NCBI GenBank assembly: GCA_002720935.1
Contig: PBIV01000056.1
Span: 1-56,757 of the forward strand
Origin: Rickettsiales bacterium
GTDB lineage: Bacteria > Pseudomonadota > Alphaproteobacteria > Micavibrionales > GCA-2720935
Direction: 5' to 3'
Length of the DNA stretch: 56,757 nt
Shown: piece after piece, positions 298 to 54,774 of the stretch
How the letters are laid out: each line of letters begins with the position of its first letter
Numbering within the stretch: position 1 is the first letter of the stretch
Notes under the pieces: model-generated
What the model saw: only the letters and a program-made list of their open reading frames with translations
Database searches by the model: none
What the model was told of the DNA's origin: nothing
Position numbers and translations under genes: made by a program

Positions 298-491
298 CTT
301 AAACTCATTATAGGATTGAGATATGGATGAAGAAGAACGTAAAGCTTTTGTTGAGCAGGCTCGTAAGGATAGAGACAGCGCCCCAAAGCATAGTGAAGAA
401 ACTTCTAGAAGCTTGTGGAGAAAATGGTCAACCGATGTTTTTACCCTTGATATGTTTCAAGAAAAAGATGACAAAGATAAAAAGAGCTGAA

Positions 492-755
492 TTACTCATC
501 TTCTTTAAGCGGTGGGTATGCCACAGGGTTCTCTATGAGGTCTCTTAAGTCGGTGGACAAAGTCCTTAGGTTTTCATTCTGATTCCTTACGTACCGCTCA
601 AACGGAGTAAGATCGGCGATAGCTTCAATGCGATTATGAAGTGCCATTAAATCGATAACAATTTTTTCAATATCGGCGGCAGTTTTACTGGTTGGCTTGG
701 CTTTAGTACCTAACTTAATAATTTCTGCCTCTGGTGGATCTATTTTCTTTACCAT
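492..755 (-). CDS. Hypothetical protein (87 aa)
   Basis: ORF with a GGAGG-like RBS upstream (aggaggggtaATG on the minus strand). No family recognised. Confidence 0.35.
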   Translation of the reverse strand: MVKKIDPPEAEIIKLGTKAKPTSKTAADIEKIVIDLMALHNRIEAIADLTPFERYVRNQNENLRTLSTDLRDLIENPVAYPPLKEDE

Positions 756-874: not shown

Positions 875-1017
875 CGCGAGACAGAGCGATTAATTATAAC
901 TATTTGTAATTATATACTTTTTCAATCTGGGTGAGACAGGAGCGAGACAGCAATAGGGACAACACCGAGACAACACCGAGACAGGAGCGAGACAAGAGCG
1001 AGACAAGAGCGAGACAA
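875..1017 (+). repeat. Iteron array (CGAGACA-type 7-mers), candidate replication origin without a Rep ORF
   Basis: Exact CGAGACA at 877, 943, 966, 977, 988, 999 and 1010, plus variants at 932 and 955. The last six are phased at 11 bp and followed by an AT-rich tract. The architecture and a 20-bp core (893-912) match the prophage rep-internal origin at 30436-30565. Confidence 0.75.
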
Positions 1018-1099
1018 ATTTAAGAATGAGAGAGTGTATTTTATTATTTTTATATAAATGATTAGAATGAATAGAGGCTAGAGGACATGGTATATTAAT

Positions 1100-1256: not shown

Positions 1257-1622
1257 TTAAATTTTCCATTCATTTGTGGGCTCTTTTCCATTATATGGCT
1301 GATACGTCAATCTCCATTCCCTTGCCATCCCCTTCTTAAAATTGCCTTCATATGCAAGCTCGATAAACCGCCTTTCAATAAGCTCATTAAAATAGTTCTG
1401 GATTGTACTGTGTGATGAAATATTCAACGCCTCCATCGCTTTTCTATGAGATAAGCCTAAGCGTCCATTTCTTTGTGGTGTATAGAGACTCTGCAACACA
1501 TTCAGGAGGCATTTTGCGCCACAACTTAGGCAAATGTACTCTTCACTATTAAAAACGTGTCTAGGAAGCCCTATGACGCCCTTTTCATGTTTATAATATT
1601 TATAGTTTTTCTTATGCCCCAT
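1257..1622 (-). CDS. Hypothetical island protein (121 aa), possible winged-helix DNA-binding protein
   Basis: ORF in the minus-strand island operon, overlapping the upstream gene by 11 nt. The segment EALNISSHSTIQNYFNELIERRFI looks HTH-like. The call is weak. Confidence 0.45.
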   Translation of the reverse strand: MGHKKNYKYYKHEKGVIGLPRHVFNSEEYICLSCGAKCLLNVLQSLYTPQRNGRLGLSHRKAMEALNISSHSTIQNYFNELIERRFIELAYEGNFKKGMAREWRLTYQPYNGKEPTNEWKI

Positions 1623-2605: not shown

Positions 2606-3352
2606 TTATTTCTGGCCAATTTTTAATCGTCGATATATAGGAGAAACAAAGGCTTTTATTGTACTTTCGCTTAAGTCAGTATTTTGTTTTGCATACCATT
2701 CCAACAACTCACTTATTAGAGCTGATTGTGTTTCGGGCAGACCGTCAGGACTATTAGCGATTTCAATAATCTTGATATATAGCTCGTCTTTATCATATTT
2801 TGGTTTGCGGCCGCGCCTTTCAAAATATTCATCGGCTTTCATTTCTTGTGCCCCCTCTATCAGTTGAGTTTTTCTAGCAGGAGAATCTTTTTCACTGAAT
2901 ACTTGCAGTAAATGACTTGTCTGGATTTCTATTTTTTTGATACAAACATCAAGCTCAGGTTCTCTAGAAGTAATAGAAGCAATCTCTGAACCAATCCAAT
3001 TTACATCGTAATAAACATTACCCCAAAAACTTTGGTCAATAACTGTATCCGCTATTGTTTCAAAGGTAGATCTATTAAAGAAACAGCCACTGGCAATTAA
3101 TTCACCAGAAACAAGAAAGGTCTCTAACATTGTACAAGCATTCTTAAAGTCTAAAAACATACTTTGGTTTCGTAAAATAGCTCCATATTCATTATCATCG
3201 TCAAAATATGATTGATAGACTTTCATCGCCAAACCGAGTTGAATTGGTCTTTCACCAAAAGCGACCCAACGCACAGCCTGGTATAATGAACACATTTCTA
3301 GCATAGGTATTTTTTCTGAATAAATTAATTTTTCTACTTCTTTATTTTTCAT
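2606..3352 (-). CDS. Hypothetical island cargo protein (248 aa)
   Basis: ORF overlapping the integrase 3' end by 11 nt. No family recognised. Confidence 0.5.
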   Translation of the reverse strand: MKNKEVEKLIYSEKIPMLEMCSLYQAVRWVAFGERPIQLGLAMKVYQSYFDDDNEYGAILRNQSMFLDFKNACTMLETFLVSGELIASGCFFNRSTFETIADTVIDQSFWGNVYYDVNWIGSEIASITSREPELDVCIKKIEIQTSHLLQVFSEKDSPARKTQLIEGAQEMKADEYFERRGRKPKYDKDELYIKIIEIANSPDGLPETQSALISELLEWYAKQNTDLSESTIKAFVSPIYRRLKIGQK

Positions 3353-4538
3353 TCTTTACCCCATCCAAATAATCTGCCCAATCTTGCATCATGACTTTAC
3401 GCTCATCAAGAAACTGCGCACGGTTATAAGCCTCTCCTAATGCGCCTGATGCCTTATGAGCAAGCTGCACCTCAATTACATCTGGGTCATATTTAAGCTT
3501 TTCACGAATAGCAGTTCTCGCCAATGCCCGAAAACCATGAGCTGTCATACGTCCATGAAAGCCTAGTTTCTTAAGGGCTACATTGACTGTACCGTCACTA
3601 ATTGGCTTTCTTGGTTTAATGATACTAGGGAAAACAAACGGTGTCTTTAAGTAGCCCGTTTCATCTTTTTGTTCTTTAAGGATTTTTATAGCTTGCTCGG
3701 ACAAGGGAACAATATGCTCTCTATTCATTTTCATGCGGTGGGCAGGAATACGCCACTCTTTTTCAGCTAAGTTAAATTCATCCCATTGAGCAGCTCTTAA
3801 TTCGCCAGGTCTAACAAAGGTTAACATAGATAATTTAATTGCTCGCCTCGTTCTGGCATATAAACGCGCTTCATTCTTTTCAAGAGCTTGTAATAGCTCT
3901 GGTATCTCGGAGGTTTGCAATGCGGGGAAATGTTTTGTCTTATGAGGTTTTAAAGCGCCAACTAAATCCACCGCTAAATTACGCTCACAACGCCCTGTCG
4001 TAATCCCAAAGGAGAATACTTGCCCGCATAACTGCCTTATACGTCCAGCAATGTCTAAAGCCCCTCTCGCTTCTATCTTTCTAAGCACATCAAGCAAATC
4101 ACTTGTTTCAATTTTGGCAATTGGGGTCGTTCCAATAAAAGGAAATACATCTTTTTCTAAACGAGTTAAGATACCTTTAGCATAATTATCCGTCCATCCT
4201 GATTTCTTAGTTTCATGCCACTCCATAGCAACAGCTTGAAAAGTATTTTGAGAATTCCTGATTCGTTCTTTCTTTTGCTTTTTCTTATGGCTTGATGGAT
4301 CAACCCCATTTACTAAAAGCTTCTTAGCCTCATCTCTTGCAACTCGGGCTTCGGAAAGTGAAATAATAGGATATGTGCCAATTGATAATAGTTTTTCCTT
4401 GCCTAGAAACCTGTATTTCATACGCCAGTATTTAGACCCTGACGGATTAACTAATAAATATAAACCACCGCCATCCGATAATTTACGTGGTTTTTCTTCT
4501 GTTTTAGCATTCTTGCAAGCAATATTGCTTAATTTCAT
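3342..4538 (-). CDS. int: Tyrosine integrase, P4-like (DUF4102 N-terminal arm-binding domain)
   Basis: The N-terminus KLSDGGGLYLLVNPSGSKYWRMKYRFLGKEKLLSIGTYP is typical of P4-type integrases. The C-terminus has HGFR...LAH...Y catalytic-type motifs. The gene is adjacent to a tRNA 3' end. Confidence 0.9.
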   Translation of the reverse strand: MKLSNIACKNAKTEEKPRKLSDGGGLYLLVNPSGSKYWRMKYRFLGKEKLLSIGTYPIISLSEARVARDEAKKLLVNGVDPSSHKKKQKKERIRNSQNTFQAVAMEWHETKKSGWTDNYAKGILTRLEKDVFPFIGTTPIAKIETSDLLDVLRKIEARGALDIAGRIRQLCGQVFSFGITTGRCERNLAVDLVGALKPHKTKHFPALQTSEIPELLQALEKNEARLYARTRRAIKLSMLTFVRPGELRAAQWDEFNLAEKEWRIPAHRMKMNREHIVPLSEQAIKILKEQKDETGYLKTPFVFPSIIKPRKPISDGTVNVALKKLGFHGRMTAHGFRALARTAIREKLKYDPDVIEVQLAHKASGALGEAYNRAQFLDERKVMMQDWADYLDGVKNEK

Positions 4539-4708
4539 CTATAGATACCCCCACCTTTTTGAGATACCCCACTTTTATACCCCCAAAAATATGTGGATGT
4601 ACGTGAAGTCACAAATAGTCCTATATATTTTGATAGCGACTAAATGCTTGCTTGGCAAGGTGTTTGTGTATATCTATAAAGTTGTGTGAAGTAAGAGAAA
4701 GTAAAAAG

Positions 4709-4793
4709 TGGTGGTGGGAGTAGGATTCGAACCTACGTACGCAATGCGGGCAGATTTACAGTCTGCTGCCTTTAACCACTCGGCCATCCCACC
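4709..4793 (-). tRNA. tRNA-Tyr (anticodon GTA)
   Basis: 85-nt cloverleaf on the minus strand. Acceptor GGTGGGA/TCCCACC followed by A-CCA, anticodon loop CTGTAAA, long variable arm and GGTTCGAATCC T-arm. Confidence 0.9.
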
Positions 4794-20569: not shown

Positions 20570-20645
20570 TGGTTGCGGGGGCAGGGTTCGAACCTGCGAC
20601 CTCTTGCGTATGAGACAAGCGAGCTGACCACTGCTCTACCCCGCA
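20570..20645 (-). tRNA. Phage-encoded tRNA with CAT anticodon (Met, or Ile2 if lysidine-modified)
   Basis: The minus strand reads TGCGGGG-TA-GAGC...GCTC-G-CTTGT-CTCATAC-GCAAG-AGGTC-GCAGG-TTCGAAC-CCTGC-CCCCGCA-A-CCA. The U1-A72 pair argues against an initiator. Confidence 0.85.
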
Positions 20646-29304: not shown

Positions 29305-29826
29305 TTAAACCAAATCATCGAGATCAACGTCAAGCGCCACCGCTATGGCTTTCAAAGTCTCTGGCGATCCAGTTCTGCGTCCACTCTCAATATCAGAGAT
29401 ATAGTTTTGAGAAAGGTCAGTTGCCTTCGCCAAGTCAATTTGGGTCATACTGCGATACTTTCTGTAAACTTTAACGGGATTATCGCCATTAAGAATATCA
29501 TTCAAGACGCTTTCTGGAAAAGTTTCCTCGCCACTATCAACGGCGGCTTTAAGCTCAAGGGCATCTTCCAAGTCTCGTACTCTTTGCTTAAGGCTCTCAT
29601 TCTCAACCAAAACTTTTTCTATAAAGTCTTTGCTTTGACGACCAAGGCTAGTACCAAAAGCCGCTTTAGGCTTTCTCGAGGAAGAAACTGTATCTGCTTT
29701 GTTCTTAACGACTTGGCGATTACCTCTAATAGCATGGCTTCCAGCTTTAGCAATAGGAGCATGCGGCTCAGAACTGGAAATAAATTTTCCAGATTTATTT
29801 TTATTGTTTTTTCTATCTTTAGTCAT
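29305..29826 (-). CDS. HigA/XRE-type antitoxin with a long basic N-terminal extension
   Basis: C-terminal HTH MTQIDLAKATDLSQNYISDIESGRR. Located directly downstream of the RelE-like toxin gene (1-nt overlap). Confidence 0.6.
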   Translation of the reverse strand: MTKDRKNNKNKSGKFISSSEPHAPIAKAGSHAIRGNRQVVKNKADTVSSSRKPKAAFGTSLGRQSKDFIEKVLVENESLKQRVRDLEDALELKAAVDSGEETFPESVLNDILNGDNPVKVYRKYRSMTQIDLAKATDLSQNYISDIESGRRTGSPETLKAIAVALDVDLDDLV

Positions 29827-30083
29827 TATTCATACACATCCTTTCTATGTCCTACTCTATACACTTCGATGATCTGCTCATCTTTTAAAACGATGTATAA
29901 AGCTCTATGTGGCTTTACTGATAATCTATATCCGTTCTGCACACCTGTAAGTGGCTTTAAGTTATTGTTCTTCGCAAAAGGGTCTTTTGCCACTTCTTTT
30001 AATTTATCAACGATCTTTGTAGAAACGGGCTTGCCCAATTTCTTTAGTTCCTTGATTGCTTTCTTTGTAAATCTCAATTCCAT
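29826..30083 (-). CDS. RelE/ParE-superfamily toxin (toxin-first, HigB-like order)
   Basis: MELRFTKKAIKELKKL...KPLTGVQNGYRLSVKPHRALYIVLKDEQIIEVYRVGHRKDVY is the classic RelE/ParE pattern. Confidence 0.7.
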   Translation of the reverse strand: MELRFTKKAIKELKKLGKPVSTKIVDKLKEVAKDPFAKNNNLKPLTGVQNGYRLSVKPHRALYIVLKDEQIIEVYRVGHRKDVYE

Positions 30084-30100
30084 GATTCTAGTATCGCACA

Positions 30101-30141
30101 TAGCGATATTAATGTCAATAATAAAAATCGCAATTAGCGAT
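30101..30141. promoter_or_regulatory. Candidate TA operator (AGCGATATT direct repeat and ATCGCaattaGCGAT palindrome)
   Basis: TAGCGATATT at 30101-10 and 30135-44. Palindrome at 30127-41. Located in the divergent region between the TA pair and rep. Confidence 0.4.
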
Positions 30142-30175: not shown

Positions 30176-31228
30176 ATGAGCGGTTGGTATAAAATGCACC
30201 GTGGTTGGATGTCTGATGAGATGTTTAAGAATGAGCCCTTTACCGAAAGAGAAGCTTATGAGTGGCTTATTTCAGAAGCAGCCTATGAAGACGGCATAAA
30301 GAATGTTAAAGGCACTCCTATCGCTTTAAAACGGGGTCAATTATCACACTCTATTCGATTTATGGCGCAGGCTTGGCAATGGAAAAAAGGTAAAGTTGAA
30401 AGATATTTAGAAAAATTAAAAAAGTGGCAAAAAATCGAGACACAAAACGAGACAGTCCAACTTATTATAACTATTTGTAATTACAAGATATTTCAGGCTC
30501 GAAAAGAAGAAATCGAGACACCTACCGAGACAAAAGCAGGACAGGAGCAGGACAGGAGCGGGACAAACTATAATAATATAAATAATTTAAATAAATTAAA
30601 TAATAATAATCCCCTTACCCCTTATTCTGATCAATCTGATTTATCCGATCATGATGAAGCGGTGGCGAGTAATGATTTAAATATCCCTTTTGATAATCTT
30701 ATCGAAATCTGGAACACCAAGTGCGGTGGCTTACATGGAACGGTCAAAGAGCTGAATGATCAACAGCGTGAAAACCTAACCAATCTATTTATCAACCGAA
30801 TGGAATCTGACTTAGAGCGGTGGGCTGACTTTTGTGAAACGATCCGTCAATCAGCTTGGCTGACTGCTAGGCATGAAAACAATCAAGAATGGATTGCTTC
30901 GTTTGACTGGTGCATTACGCTTGGCAATGCCGATAAAATCTTAAACGGCTCTTATCCCGCCATTGTGCAAGAAGCCCCTGTAAAGCCGTTTCAGCCTGAA
31001 TTTAACGAATTTCAAGAGCGCTTAATAGCGGTGGGTAAGTTAGAACGGGTCAAGGCTCACAACCATTTCAAAGATGTAAGCTTTCGAATAGATCGGAAAA
31101 CCCTCCATGTCATCACAGACAAGCCCGTAAAGCGGGATTACATCAAACAATACCTATCTCAGGCCTTAGATCTCGCTTTCCTAAATTGGCAGGGCTTGAA
31201 ATATATCGAGGTTCAATGCTCGCAATAA
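30176..31228 (+). CDS. Replication initiator (lambda O / DnaD-like winged-helix N-terminus) with an internal origin
   Basis: The N-terminus WYKMHRGWMSDEMFKNEPFTEREAYEWLISEAAY...ALKRGQL is typical of phage replication proteins. Iterons and an AT-rich Asn-codon tract lie inside the ORF, as in lambda O. Confidence 0.65.
   Translation: MSGWYKMHRGWMSDEMFKNEPFTEREAYEWLISEAAYEDGIKNVKGTPIALKRGQLSHSIRFMAQAWQWKKGKVERYLEKLKKWQKIETQNETVQLIITICNYKIFQARKEEIETPTETKAGQEQDRSGTNYNNINNLNKLNNNNPLTPYSDQSDLSDHDEAVASNDLNIPFDNLIEIWNTKCGGLHGTVKELNDQQRENLTNLFINRMESDLERWADFCETIRQSAWLTARHENNQEWIASFDWCITLGNADKILNGSYPAIVQEAPVKPFQPEFNEFQERLIAVGKLERVKAHNHFKDVSFRIDRKTLHVITDKPVKRDYIKQYLSQALDLAFLNWQGLKYIEVQCSQ
30436..30565 (+). 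repeat. Prophage origin iterons inside rep
   Basis: CGAGACA at 30436, 30448, 30514 and 30526. CAGGACA/CGGGACA at 30537, 30548 and 30559 (11-12 bp phasing), followed by an AT-rich tract. Confidence 0.7.
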
Positions 31229-54704: not shown

Positions 54705-54774
54705 GCTACGTTGACATCGTAGAGGTCACAAGTTCGAATCTTGTTATGCCCACCATTTAAATCAATGACTTAGC
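54705..54774 (+). repeat. attR core (70-bp direct repeat, pseudo-3' part of tRNA-Val)
   Basis: Identical by eye to 16036..16105. Confidence 0.9.

Follow-up and report, generated by a model that had tools for sequence, protein, structure and literature searches.

A candidate captured phage replication origin, lacking its initiator gene, in a small tRNA-Tyr island of a Rickettsiales bacterium

The window analysed here is a 56,757-nucleotide stretch of contig PBIV01000056.1 from a Rickettsiales bacterium (assembly GCA_002720935.1), and it holds two integrated elements. A small island, whose left end lies just outside the window, occupies a tRNA-Tyr gene (4709-4793, minus strand) and ends at the attR core AAAAGTGGTGGTGGGAGTAG (4704-4723). 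A 38.7-kb prophage (16036-54774) sits 11 kb from the island at a tRNA-Val gene; it encodes an integrase, TerS, TerL, a portal, a protease-capsid fusion, a tail sheath and a tape measure. It is bounded by a 70-bp direct repeat (16036-16105 and 54705-54774) that takes in the 3' half of the tRNA-Val gene and a further 19 nt, and its empty attB was seen in other assemblies (L254/L274, L275 and L287; retrieved loci are numbered with an L). An earlier note on this DNA had proposed that a non-coding stretch of the island repeats the replication origin found inside the rep gene of the prophage, and that the island could be a satellite replicating with the prophage's initiator in trans.

The stretch in question, 877-1075 on the plus strand, lies in an intergenic spacer of the island and is laid out as one upstream CGAGACA iteron (877-883), a 20-bp core, ATTATAACTATTTGTAATTA (893-912), eight downstream (N)G(A/G)GACA iterons (932-1016) and an A+T-rich tract (1017-1075). 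The downstream array comprises one TGAGACA, six CGAGACA and one AGGGACA unit, all in the same orientation. The units start at 932, 943, 955, 966, 977, 988, 999 and 1010, at spacings of 11, 12, 11, 11, 11, 11 and 11 bp; at least four such phased repeats were asked of an origin. The GACA cores of all nine island iterons are intact. The tract beyond them is 83% A+T, against 62% for the whole window, carries AAGAATGA-type motifs as in related phage origins, and is presumed to be the DNA-unwinding element. CGAGACA occurs 15 times in the window where 3.0 ± 1.5 copies were expected, and the island block accounts for seven of these and the Rep origin for four; the pattern RRGACA-N5-RRGACA-N5-RRGACA matches these two places and no other in the window (0 in 100 shuffles).

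The counterpart in the prophage (30436-30610, plus strand) lies in frame within rep (30176-31228, plus strand), which encodes a 350-aa O-like/DnaD-like initiator. It consists of two upstream iterons (starting at 30436 and 30448), the identical core at 30464-30483 (by direct reading and by alignment), five downstream iterons (30514, 30526, 30537, 30548 and 30559) and a tract of 98% A+T (30566-30610); four of the seven iterons are exact CGAGACA. A pairwise comparison of the two stretches, as the earlier note had recommended, delimited a shared block at 877-1006 and 30448-30566 (68.7% identity; blastn E 6e-9). The common architecture, the identical core and the A+T-rich tract past the array that had been described from the letters alone were confirmed. 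The iteron counts needed amending: two upstream iterons had been assigned to each copy, which is right for the prophage, while the island has one; five to seven downstream units had been given, which suits the prophage's five and not the island's eight. A blastn search with the island over the remainder of the window found, besides the origin block, no similarity between island and prophage.

The prophage Rep matched the PHROG families 'replication initiation O-like' and 'DnaD-like helicase loader'. Since searches of Pfam, NCBIfam and PDB sequences gave no match, its family membership is read from PHROG profiles only. The nearest cultured relatives by tblastn are initiators of Sulfitobacter, Vibrio and Staphylococcus phages, similar in the N-terminal domain only. 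A single-sequence AlphaFold2 model of the Rep N terminus was too poor for use (predicted local distance difference test, pLDDT, 57). Directly upstream of rep, the opposite strand carries two genes (29305-30101 together), one for a 91-aa toxin of the ParE family and one for a 173-aa HTH_3 antitoxin-like protein, and the prophage has its own tRNA-Met (20570-20645).

What the island copy lacks is the gene around the origin. Read in the Rep frame (frame 2), the island sequence runs through ...LIITICNYILFQSG into a TGA codon at 932-934, which closes the 37-codon open frame that contains the core. This stop is contributed by the first downstream iteron, which begins 20 nt past the core. With Rep as tblastn query, residues 79-130 aligned to 839-994 (E 2.6e-5), and no match to the Rep N- or C-terminal parts was found elsewhere in the window. 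What has been kept corresponds precisely to the cis-acting DNA, free of flanking Rep N- or C-terminal coding sequence. The earlier description of an island frame that hits a stop, with no Rep N terminus before it, thus stands, as does that of the block as a version of an intragenic phage origin without an open reading frame (ORF).

We placed both copies in a wider set of 34 relatives, made up of 15 IMG/VR contigs that match the 20-mer and 19 G(A/G)GACA-iteron loci in which a core-like motif lies a short way upstream; the latter came from a scan of IMG/VR for four-unit G(A/G)GACA arrays, which returned at least 120 loci. In all 34, the core lies inside an intact reading frame of 210-406 codons, about 85-159 codons from its start, so that the in-frame embedding noted for the prophage origin extends to every one of them. 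The common layout is zero to three upstream iterons (usually one or two), the core, three to seven downstream iterons at ~11-bp spacing, and an A+T-rich tract that often carries AAGAATGA-type repeats. The first downstream iteron almost always falls ~30 nt past the core. We take this layout to be the intragenic origin of a widespread O-like/DnaD-like phage initiator family. Among the copies examined, the island's is the sole one without an ORF and has the largest array, with eight downstream units against three to seven in the family; its extra unit, 20 nt past the core, would be incompatible with coding.

The identical 20-mer first suggested a private link between island and prophage, and this we rejected. 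The core encodes IITICNY, conserved residues that close the N-terminal winged-helix domain in the Rep family, and is a family-wide coding motif. The iteron hexamer, by contrast, varies from phage to phage (CGACCA, ACGAAC, TATAGC, AGCAGC, CAACCA, GAGACA, GGGACA and others). Iteron type tracks the clade of the DNA-binding domain, since Reps with G(A/G)GACA iterons mostly share 43-48% identity with the window Rep in the N-terminal domain, compared with 21-32% for Reps with other iterons. Because iteron sequence is clade-specific, the island iterons fall into the specificity class of the resident Rep, and we regard iteron type, and not the 20-mer, as the meaningful match between the two elements. 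With their constant core and clade-specific iterons, the family loci (L007-L021 and L042-L155) form a data set on initiator-iteron specificity, and could be used to search genomes for orphan origins matched to resident phages.

The same hexamer also turned up in another setting. Four IMG/VR contigs of 4.6-6.0 kb from the viral fraction (L041, L086, L112 and L120) carry intergenic 11-bp tandem arrays with five or six copies of GAGACA; in L086, four DnaA boxes (TTATCCACA) stand before the array. These look like plasmid- or satellite-type origins and are unrelated to the island.

To view the island whole, we recovered it in its chromosomal setting from other assemblies by exact-protein look-ups. 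An orthologous island in the ZHEN20 lineage (L161/L162/L251) is 97-99% identical to the island of the window on both sides of the block; in the blastn comparison with L161, the flanks 784-879 and 1048-2829 match at 96-97%. Where the window has 168 bp (880-1047, plus strand), L161 has 27 unrelated bp and no rep ORF. The block thereby appears as an origin cassette whose left edge runs through the upstream iteron, the conserved flank contributing its first three bases and the cassette the other four. The flanks belong to a ~130-bp island-specific unit that occurs twice in L161, where the paralogous copy has 6 nt at the equivalent point. As the flanks are contiguous in both the cassette-less orthologue and the paralogue, the gene-less origin looks like an insertion into island sequence. 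The two units in L161 form a diverged tandem duplication (10785-11052; TAAGGRCAGCATAA ... ACGCGCGCGA ... TATTATTTCAWATAAA), which also makes the adjacent gene longer, with 104 codons instead of 87.

This comparison bears on the alternative offered by the earlier note, namely that the block is all that survives of a decayed rep gene. A Rep-like frame interrupted by a stop, and a distant homologue of the Rep domain encoded nearby in the island, would suit such a history. Decay in place should, however, leave some remnant of the flanking N- or C-terminal Rep sequence, and tblastn found none; the island-specific flanks close up around 27 bp in the orthologue and 6 nt in the paralogue; and the 4.8-kb orthologue has neither room for nor trace of a 1-kb rep gene. 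An orthologous island with an intact rep ORF across the same iterons was not found, and we consider this explanation largely refuted. A second part of the earlier proposal, that the block is a copy of this very prophage's origin, also fell. At ~69% identity, the resident origin is no closer to the block than are those of unrelated phages with the same iteron type, so the block is not a recent copy of it.

The ends of the island were fixed by the empty tRNA-Tyr attB of L274, an 842-kb Tara scaffold. The island measures ~4.8 kb in L161 (9856-14662) and ~4.9 kb in the window lineage, in which attL precedes window position 1 by ~155 bp. An imperfect 20-bp repeat derived from the 3' end of the tRNA flanks the island, which has ATACCCC(C)A arm-type repeats at both ends, three of them beside int (4545-4585) with counterparts at the left end. 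The element is complete, with intact arm-type repeats and integrase. With its own integrase and defined att sites, it is equipped for site-specific integration as satellites are. The integrase gene (3342-4538, minus strand) is of the P4 type that had been recognised from the sequence (Arm-DNA-bind_3, Phage_int_M and Phage_integrase domains). Over the whole island, searches with Pfam, PHROGs and NCBIfam found no initiator, primase, helicase, terminase or capsid gene. A replication module of its own, in the sense of a primase or initiator together with an origin, is thus missing from the island, and what it has in this direction is a homologue of a winged-helix domain. The recovered island likewise yielded no rep homologue and no capsid-redirecting gene, apart from that distant homologue, a 121-aa protein. 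The label 'Rep-less' therefore holds for the initiator gene and not for the domain.

The 121-aa protein (1257-1622, minus strand) stands alone and is distantly homologous to the DNA-binding domain at the Rep N terminus (hhalign: 91% probability, E 1e-6, 77 columns), with weak matches to DnaD-like PHROGs. Its AlphaFold2 model (pLDDT 67) found its best PDB matches in the N-terminal domains of RepA_N initiators, followed by MarR-type regulators. The protein family is large (3074 clusters, mostly 120-200 aa); no homologue was found in the IMG/VR scan, and the contigs of two distant homologues (L168 and L169) are too short to reach the spacer. Reading the 121-aa gene as the N-terminal half of the same decayed rep was rejected, given its opposite orientation, its ~16% identity to the Rep domain and this large stand-alone family.

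One could still suppose that the island uses the block as an origin of its own, with the 121-aa protein as initiator, possibly together with partners. Homology to the iteron-binding domain of the Rep family, the RepA_N initiators among the best structural matches and a distance of 240 bp between gene and block all fit. Yet the ZHEN20 island encodes a 98% identical protein and is without GAGACA iterons; ~16% identity to the Rep domain makes a shared iteron specificity unlikely; the protein has no C-terminal domain for recruiting a helicase or primase; and the block is inverted relative to the gene. Better candidate sites lie beside its stop codon: direct and dyad GTGCTACA repeats (region 1100-1250; at 1100, 1210 and 1232, inverted at 1223), which directly follow the stop and are kept in both island variants. 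They could be binding sites of the 121-aa protein, or an operator or origin of the island itself. Service of the block by this protein is, on these grounds, very improbable.

Three chromosomal states were distinguished among the available lineages. The cassette-bearing state is represented by the window and by L276, which join the left end of the prophage to the cassette-bearing island on one contig; the exact Rep protein was found in the same Tara sample as the cassette-bearing contigs. Two long scaffolds, L274 and L275, have neither element, and L274 shares 99.6% identity with the window in the chromosome between the two integration sites. In the ZHEN20 lineage the island is present but the cassette is not, and the prophage attB is probably empty (L264/L287). 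L287 (37.7 kb, from a sister sample) combines an empty tRNA-Val attB with an 845-bp overlap at 100% identity with the island contig, and the two show the same divergence from two reference lineages; the link that makes ZHEN20 probably prophage-free is suggestive only. In the species-representative genomes, a collection without the source genome, 18 of the 19 matches to the 20-mer were chance matches in A+T-rich sequence, and no second genome with the island-prophage pair was found.

Presence of the block thus goes with presence of the prophage across the three lineages available, and this is among the observations that a neutral recombination scar does not anticipate. On that explanation, illegitimate recombination placed a short fragment of rep from a related phage in the island spacer, where it serves no function and is too young to have decayed. 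The frame through the block is open but for one TGA, which suggests recent descent from a coding gene; the left junction falls at a CGA microhomology within the iteron; and it is plausible that recombination is frequent at origins and repeat arrays. Moreover, the block occurs in a single lineage and the sampled copies are all identical, so purifying selection on the iterons is not measurable. Against a scar, the piece coincides with the whole cis-acting origin and takes in no other part of a 1-kb gene or of a 38.7-kb phage, this being the one similarity between island and prophage in the window. Its array is larger than in every intact family member examined, and its iterons are of the type that fits the co-resident Rep clade. 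We regard a scar, the main rival reading, as possible but rather unlikely.

The reading we favour, with a probability of roughly 0.45, is that 877-1075 is a captured, gene-less, cis-acting phage origin that responds to a phage Rep in trans. We have moderate confidence that the block is functional; as an origin it would serve hitch-hiking replication, titration of Rep, or both. In the sequence of events we envisage, Rep would be expressed by the prophage, or by a relative from the same clade that infects the cell, and would bind the nine island iterons, melt the adjoining A+T-rich tract and recruit the host replisome. The island, whether still integrated or first released by its integrase and excisionase, would then be amplified at the expense of the phage, and the surplus island iterons would compete with the phage origin for Rep.

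Several observations weigh against this reading. Upstream of the core the island has a single iteron, against one to three in most relatives, and the first unit downstream stands 10 bp nearer the core than is the norm in the family; either departure could impair origin function. The donor phage was not found in IMG/VR with a degenerate IITICNY-[IK]-[LI]-FQ pattern, so the block could be a very recent, undecayed recombination scar. Each chromosomal state is represented by a single lineage (n = 1), the block is known from one island lineage with identical copies, and the link between the ZHEN20 island and the prophage-free site is an 845-bp overlap in which other strains differ by one or two bases. 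Island DNA was not found in IMG/VR. Finally, blastn detected no cos- or pac-like sequence common to island and prophage, and the island has no head, packaging, capsid-redirecting or terminase-redirecting gene; for these reasons, the absence from IMG/VR included, a full satellite life cycle is not supported, although headful packaging independent of sequence is possible. Eight island units (~4.86 kb x 8 = 38.9 kb) add up to almost one prophage genome length (38.7 kb). Such a match would suit concatemer packaging as in PICMI and may equally be a coincidence.

The absence of a common packaging signal is also what one would expect if the array did not serve propagation of the island and were purely a decoy that titrates Rep or handcuffs the phage origin. 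The block is a non-coding phage origin located in the host apart from the phage, as in phage-encoded resistance (PER) elements, and cloned phage origins supplied in trans do inhibit the cognate phage (PhiSfi21 PER, PMC6356513; lambda ori iterons ITN3-4, PMC3349717). The island array exceeds the prophage origin both in iterons and in iterons of the consensus type. Satellites and small islands often hold anti-phage cargo in variable spots (PMC9122126); PADLOC found no defence-system match in any island protein. However, nine iterons in a single chromosomal copy are unlikely to titrate an induced initiator unless amplified, which would require the origin to fire. The A+T-rich unwinding tract has been kept, although it is not needed for interference in lambda (PMC3349717), and the lysogen keeps both elements, so that any interference is not prohibitive to the prophage. 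A pure decoy therefore seems improbable to us.

How the captured origin would fit among known systems can be judged from several comparisons. Phage lambda O with ori-lambda and the RepA_N plasmid replicons share with the prophage Rep and its 34 relatives an origin of direct iterons phased with the helical repeat and followed by an A+T-rich tract inside the initiator gene, in the region coding for the linker between an N-terminal winged-helix domain and a C-terminal recruiting domain. The island copy differs in having lost the surrounding gene, leaving cis-acting DNA only. In this it resembles mobile DNAs that travel by a cis site alone: cos-SaPIs carry the cos site of their helper, and oriT-only mobilizable plasmids and f1-origin phagemids are other cis-only hitchers, all of which dispense with a gene and keep the DNA site that the helper recognises. 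What would set the island apart is the function borrowed, the initiation of tailed-phage replication, which to our knowledge has not been described for any natural satellite. All characterised satellite families of which we are aware (P4, PICI/SaPI, PLE and PICMI) bring their own initiator or primase, and in the literature searched we found no report of a natural satellite that relies on a copy of its helper's origin. The concept of the hitcher has been set out elsewhere (PMC11389934).

The closest parallel in overall design is PICMI (PMC10803314). Like PICMI115 (~6.1 kb), the island is very small (4.8-4.9 kb) and resides in a marine bacterium, and it shares with PICMI an integrase, a gene overlapping int and the lack of capsid-remodelling genes; it may also have a small regulator of the AlpA/excisionase type, as PICMI does. 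PICMI, P4, PICI and PLE, on the other hand, each encode a primase or initiator of their own, and the prim gene of PICMI115 is required for its replication (PMC10803314); the island encodes neither and has a phage-type origin instead. Its proteins are unrelated in sequence to those of PICMI and other satellites. PER elements and the lambda ori-iteron 'inhibition phenotype' plasmids resemble the island in that the host contains, in trans, a phage origin that is non-coding. Such origins are bound and fired by phage factors, cognate phage replication can drop (PMC6356513; PMC3349717), and lambda ori-iteron plasmids block phages with the lambda replication module (PMC3349717). Those cases are cloned multicopy fragments or origins within a prophage, in contrast to a natural, single-copy origin on an excisable island.

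Carried to its full extent, the argument would make the island the first natural example of origin piracy by a phage satellite, an element without initiator or primase that replicates, and competes, solely by means of an expanded gene-less origin of its helper's clade. We put this stronger claim forward as doubtful. If true, it would push the minimal gene set of a satellite lower, add replication initiation to the helper functions that, like cos and oriT, can be borrowed through a cis site alone, and provide a natural counterpart of the engineered PER trick for phage resistance. The cassette would then be an exchangeable helper-specificity module, perhaps together with the swapped domain described next.

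The gene at 2606-3352 (minus strand), which overlaps int by 11 nt and encodes a 248-aa protein, differs between the island variants in its N-terminal domain. Compared with L161 12820-13313, the C-terminal 70 aa are ~97% identical and the N-terminal domain ~28%; the swapped part spans window 2830-3354 (~175 codons), and the swap accompanies presence or absence of the cassette. This N-terminal domain may be a helper-sensing or specificity module.

Between this gene and the 121-aa gene lie three further minus-strand genes. The one at 2323-2502, called AlpA-like in the earlier note, encodes a 59-aa protein that may be of HTH_17/excisionase type, its matches being weak (HTH_17 at 24.7 bits, below the Pfam cut-off of 27 bits; TIGR01764 at E 0.004). 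A 116-aa HTH_91 winged-helix protein is encoded at 1860-2210 (Pfam PF22324, E 5.5e-17), and an 81-aa island protein with no function assigned at 1612-1857. The left arm of the island (1-755) holds a 99-aa gene that starts 2 nt before the window (plus strand), a 55-aa gene (323-490, plus strand) and an 87-aa gene (492-755, minus strand). A promoter and terminator scan gave matches at or below chance level. In the spacer, 1142-1159 matches the tail of the prophage att core (16087-16104 and 54756-54773) at 17 of 18 positions (TTAAWTCAATGACTTAG); with E values of 0.2-0.8 this is probably chance, and we rejected it as meaningful.

The island integrase has relatives in IMG/VR at only 39-47% identity, word-indexed homologue searches with the island proteins returned one to three clusters each, and a metagenome scan with the conserved island flank recovered one Tara contig, already known. 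Outside attL, the window lineage departs from its relatives: the DNA there differs from the DedA/ArgG flank of ZHEN20 and of the island-free strains, and the reverse complement of L002 1-173, ~170-343 bp left of window position 1, matches nothing retrieved. In this lineage, a second element may sit in tandem with the island at tRNA-Tyr.

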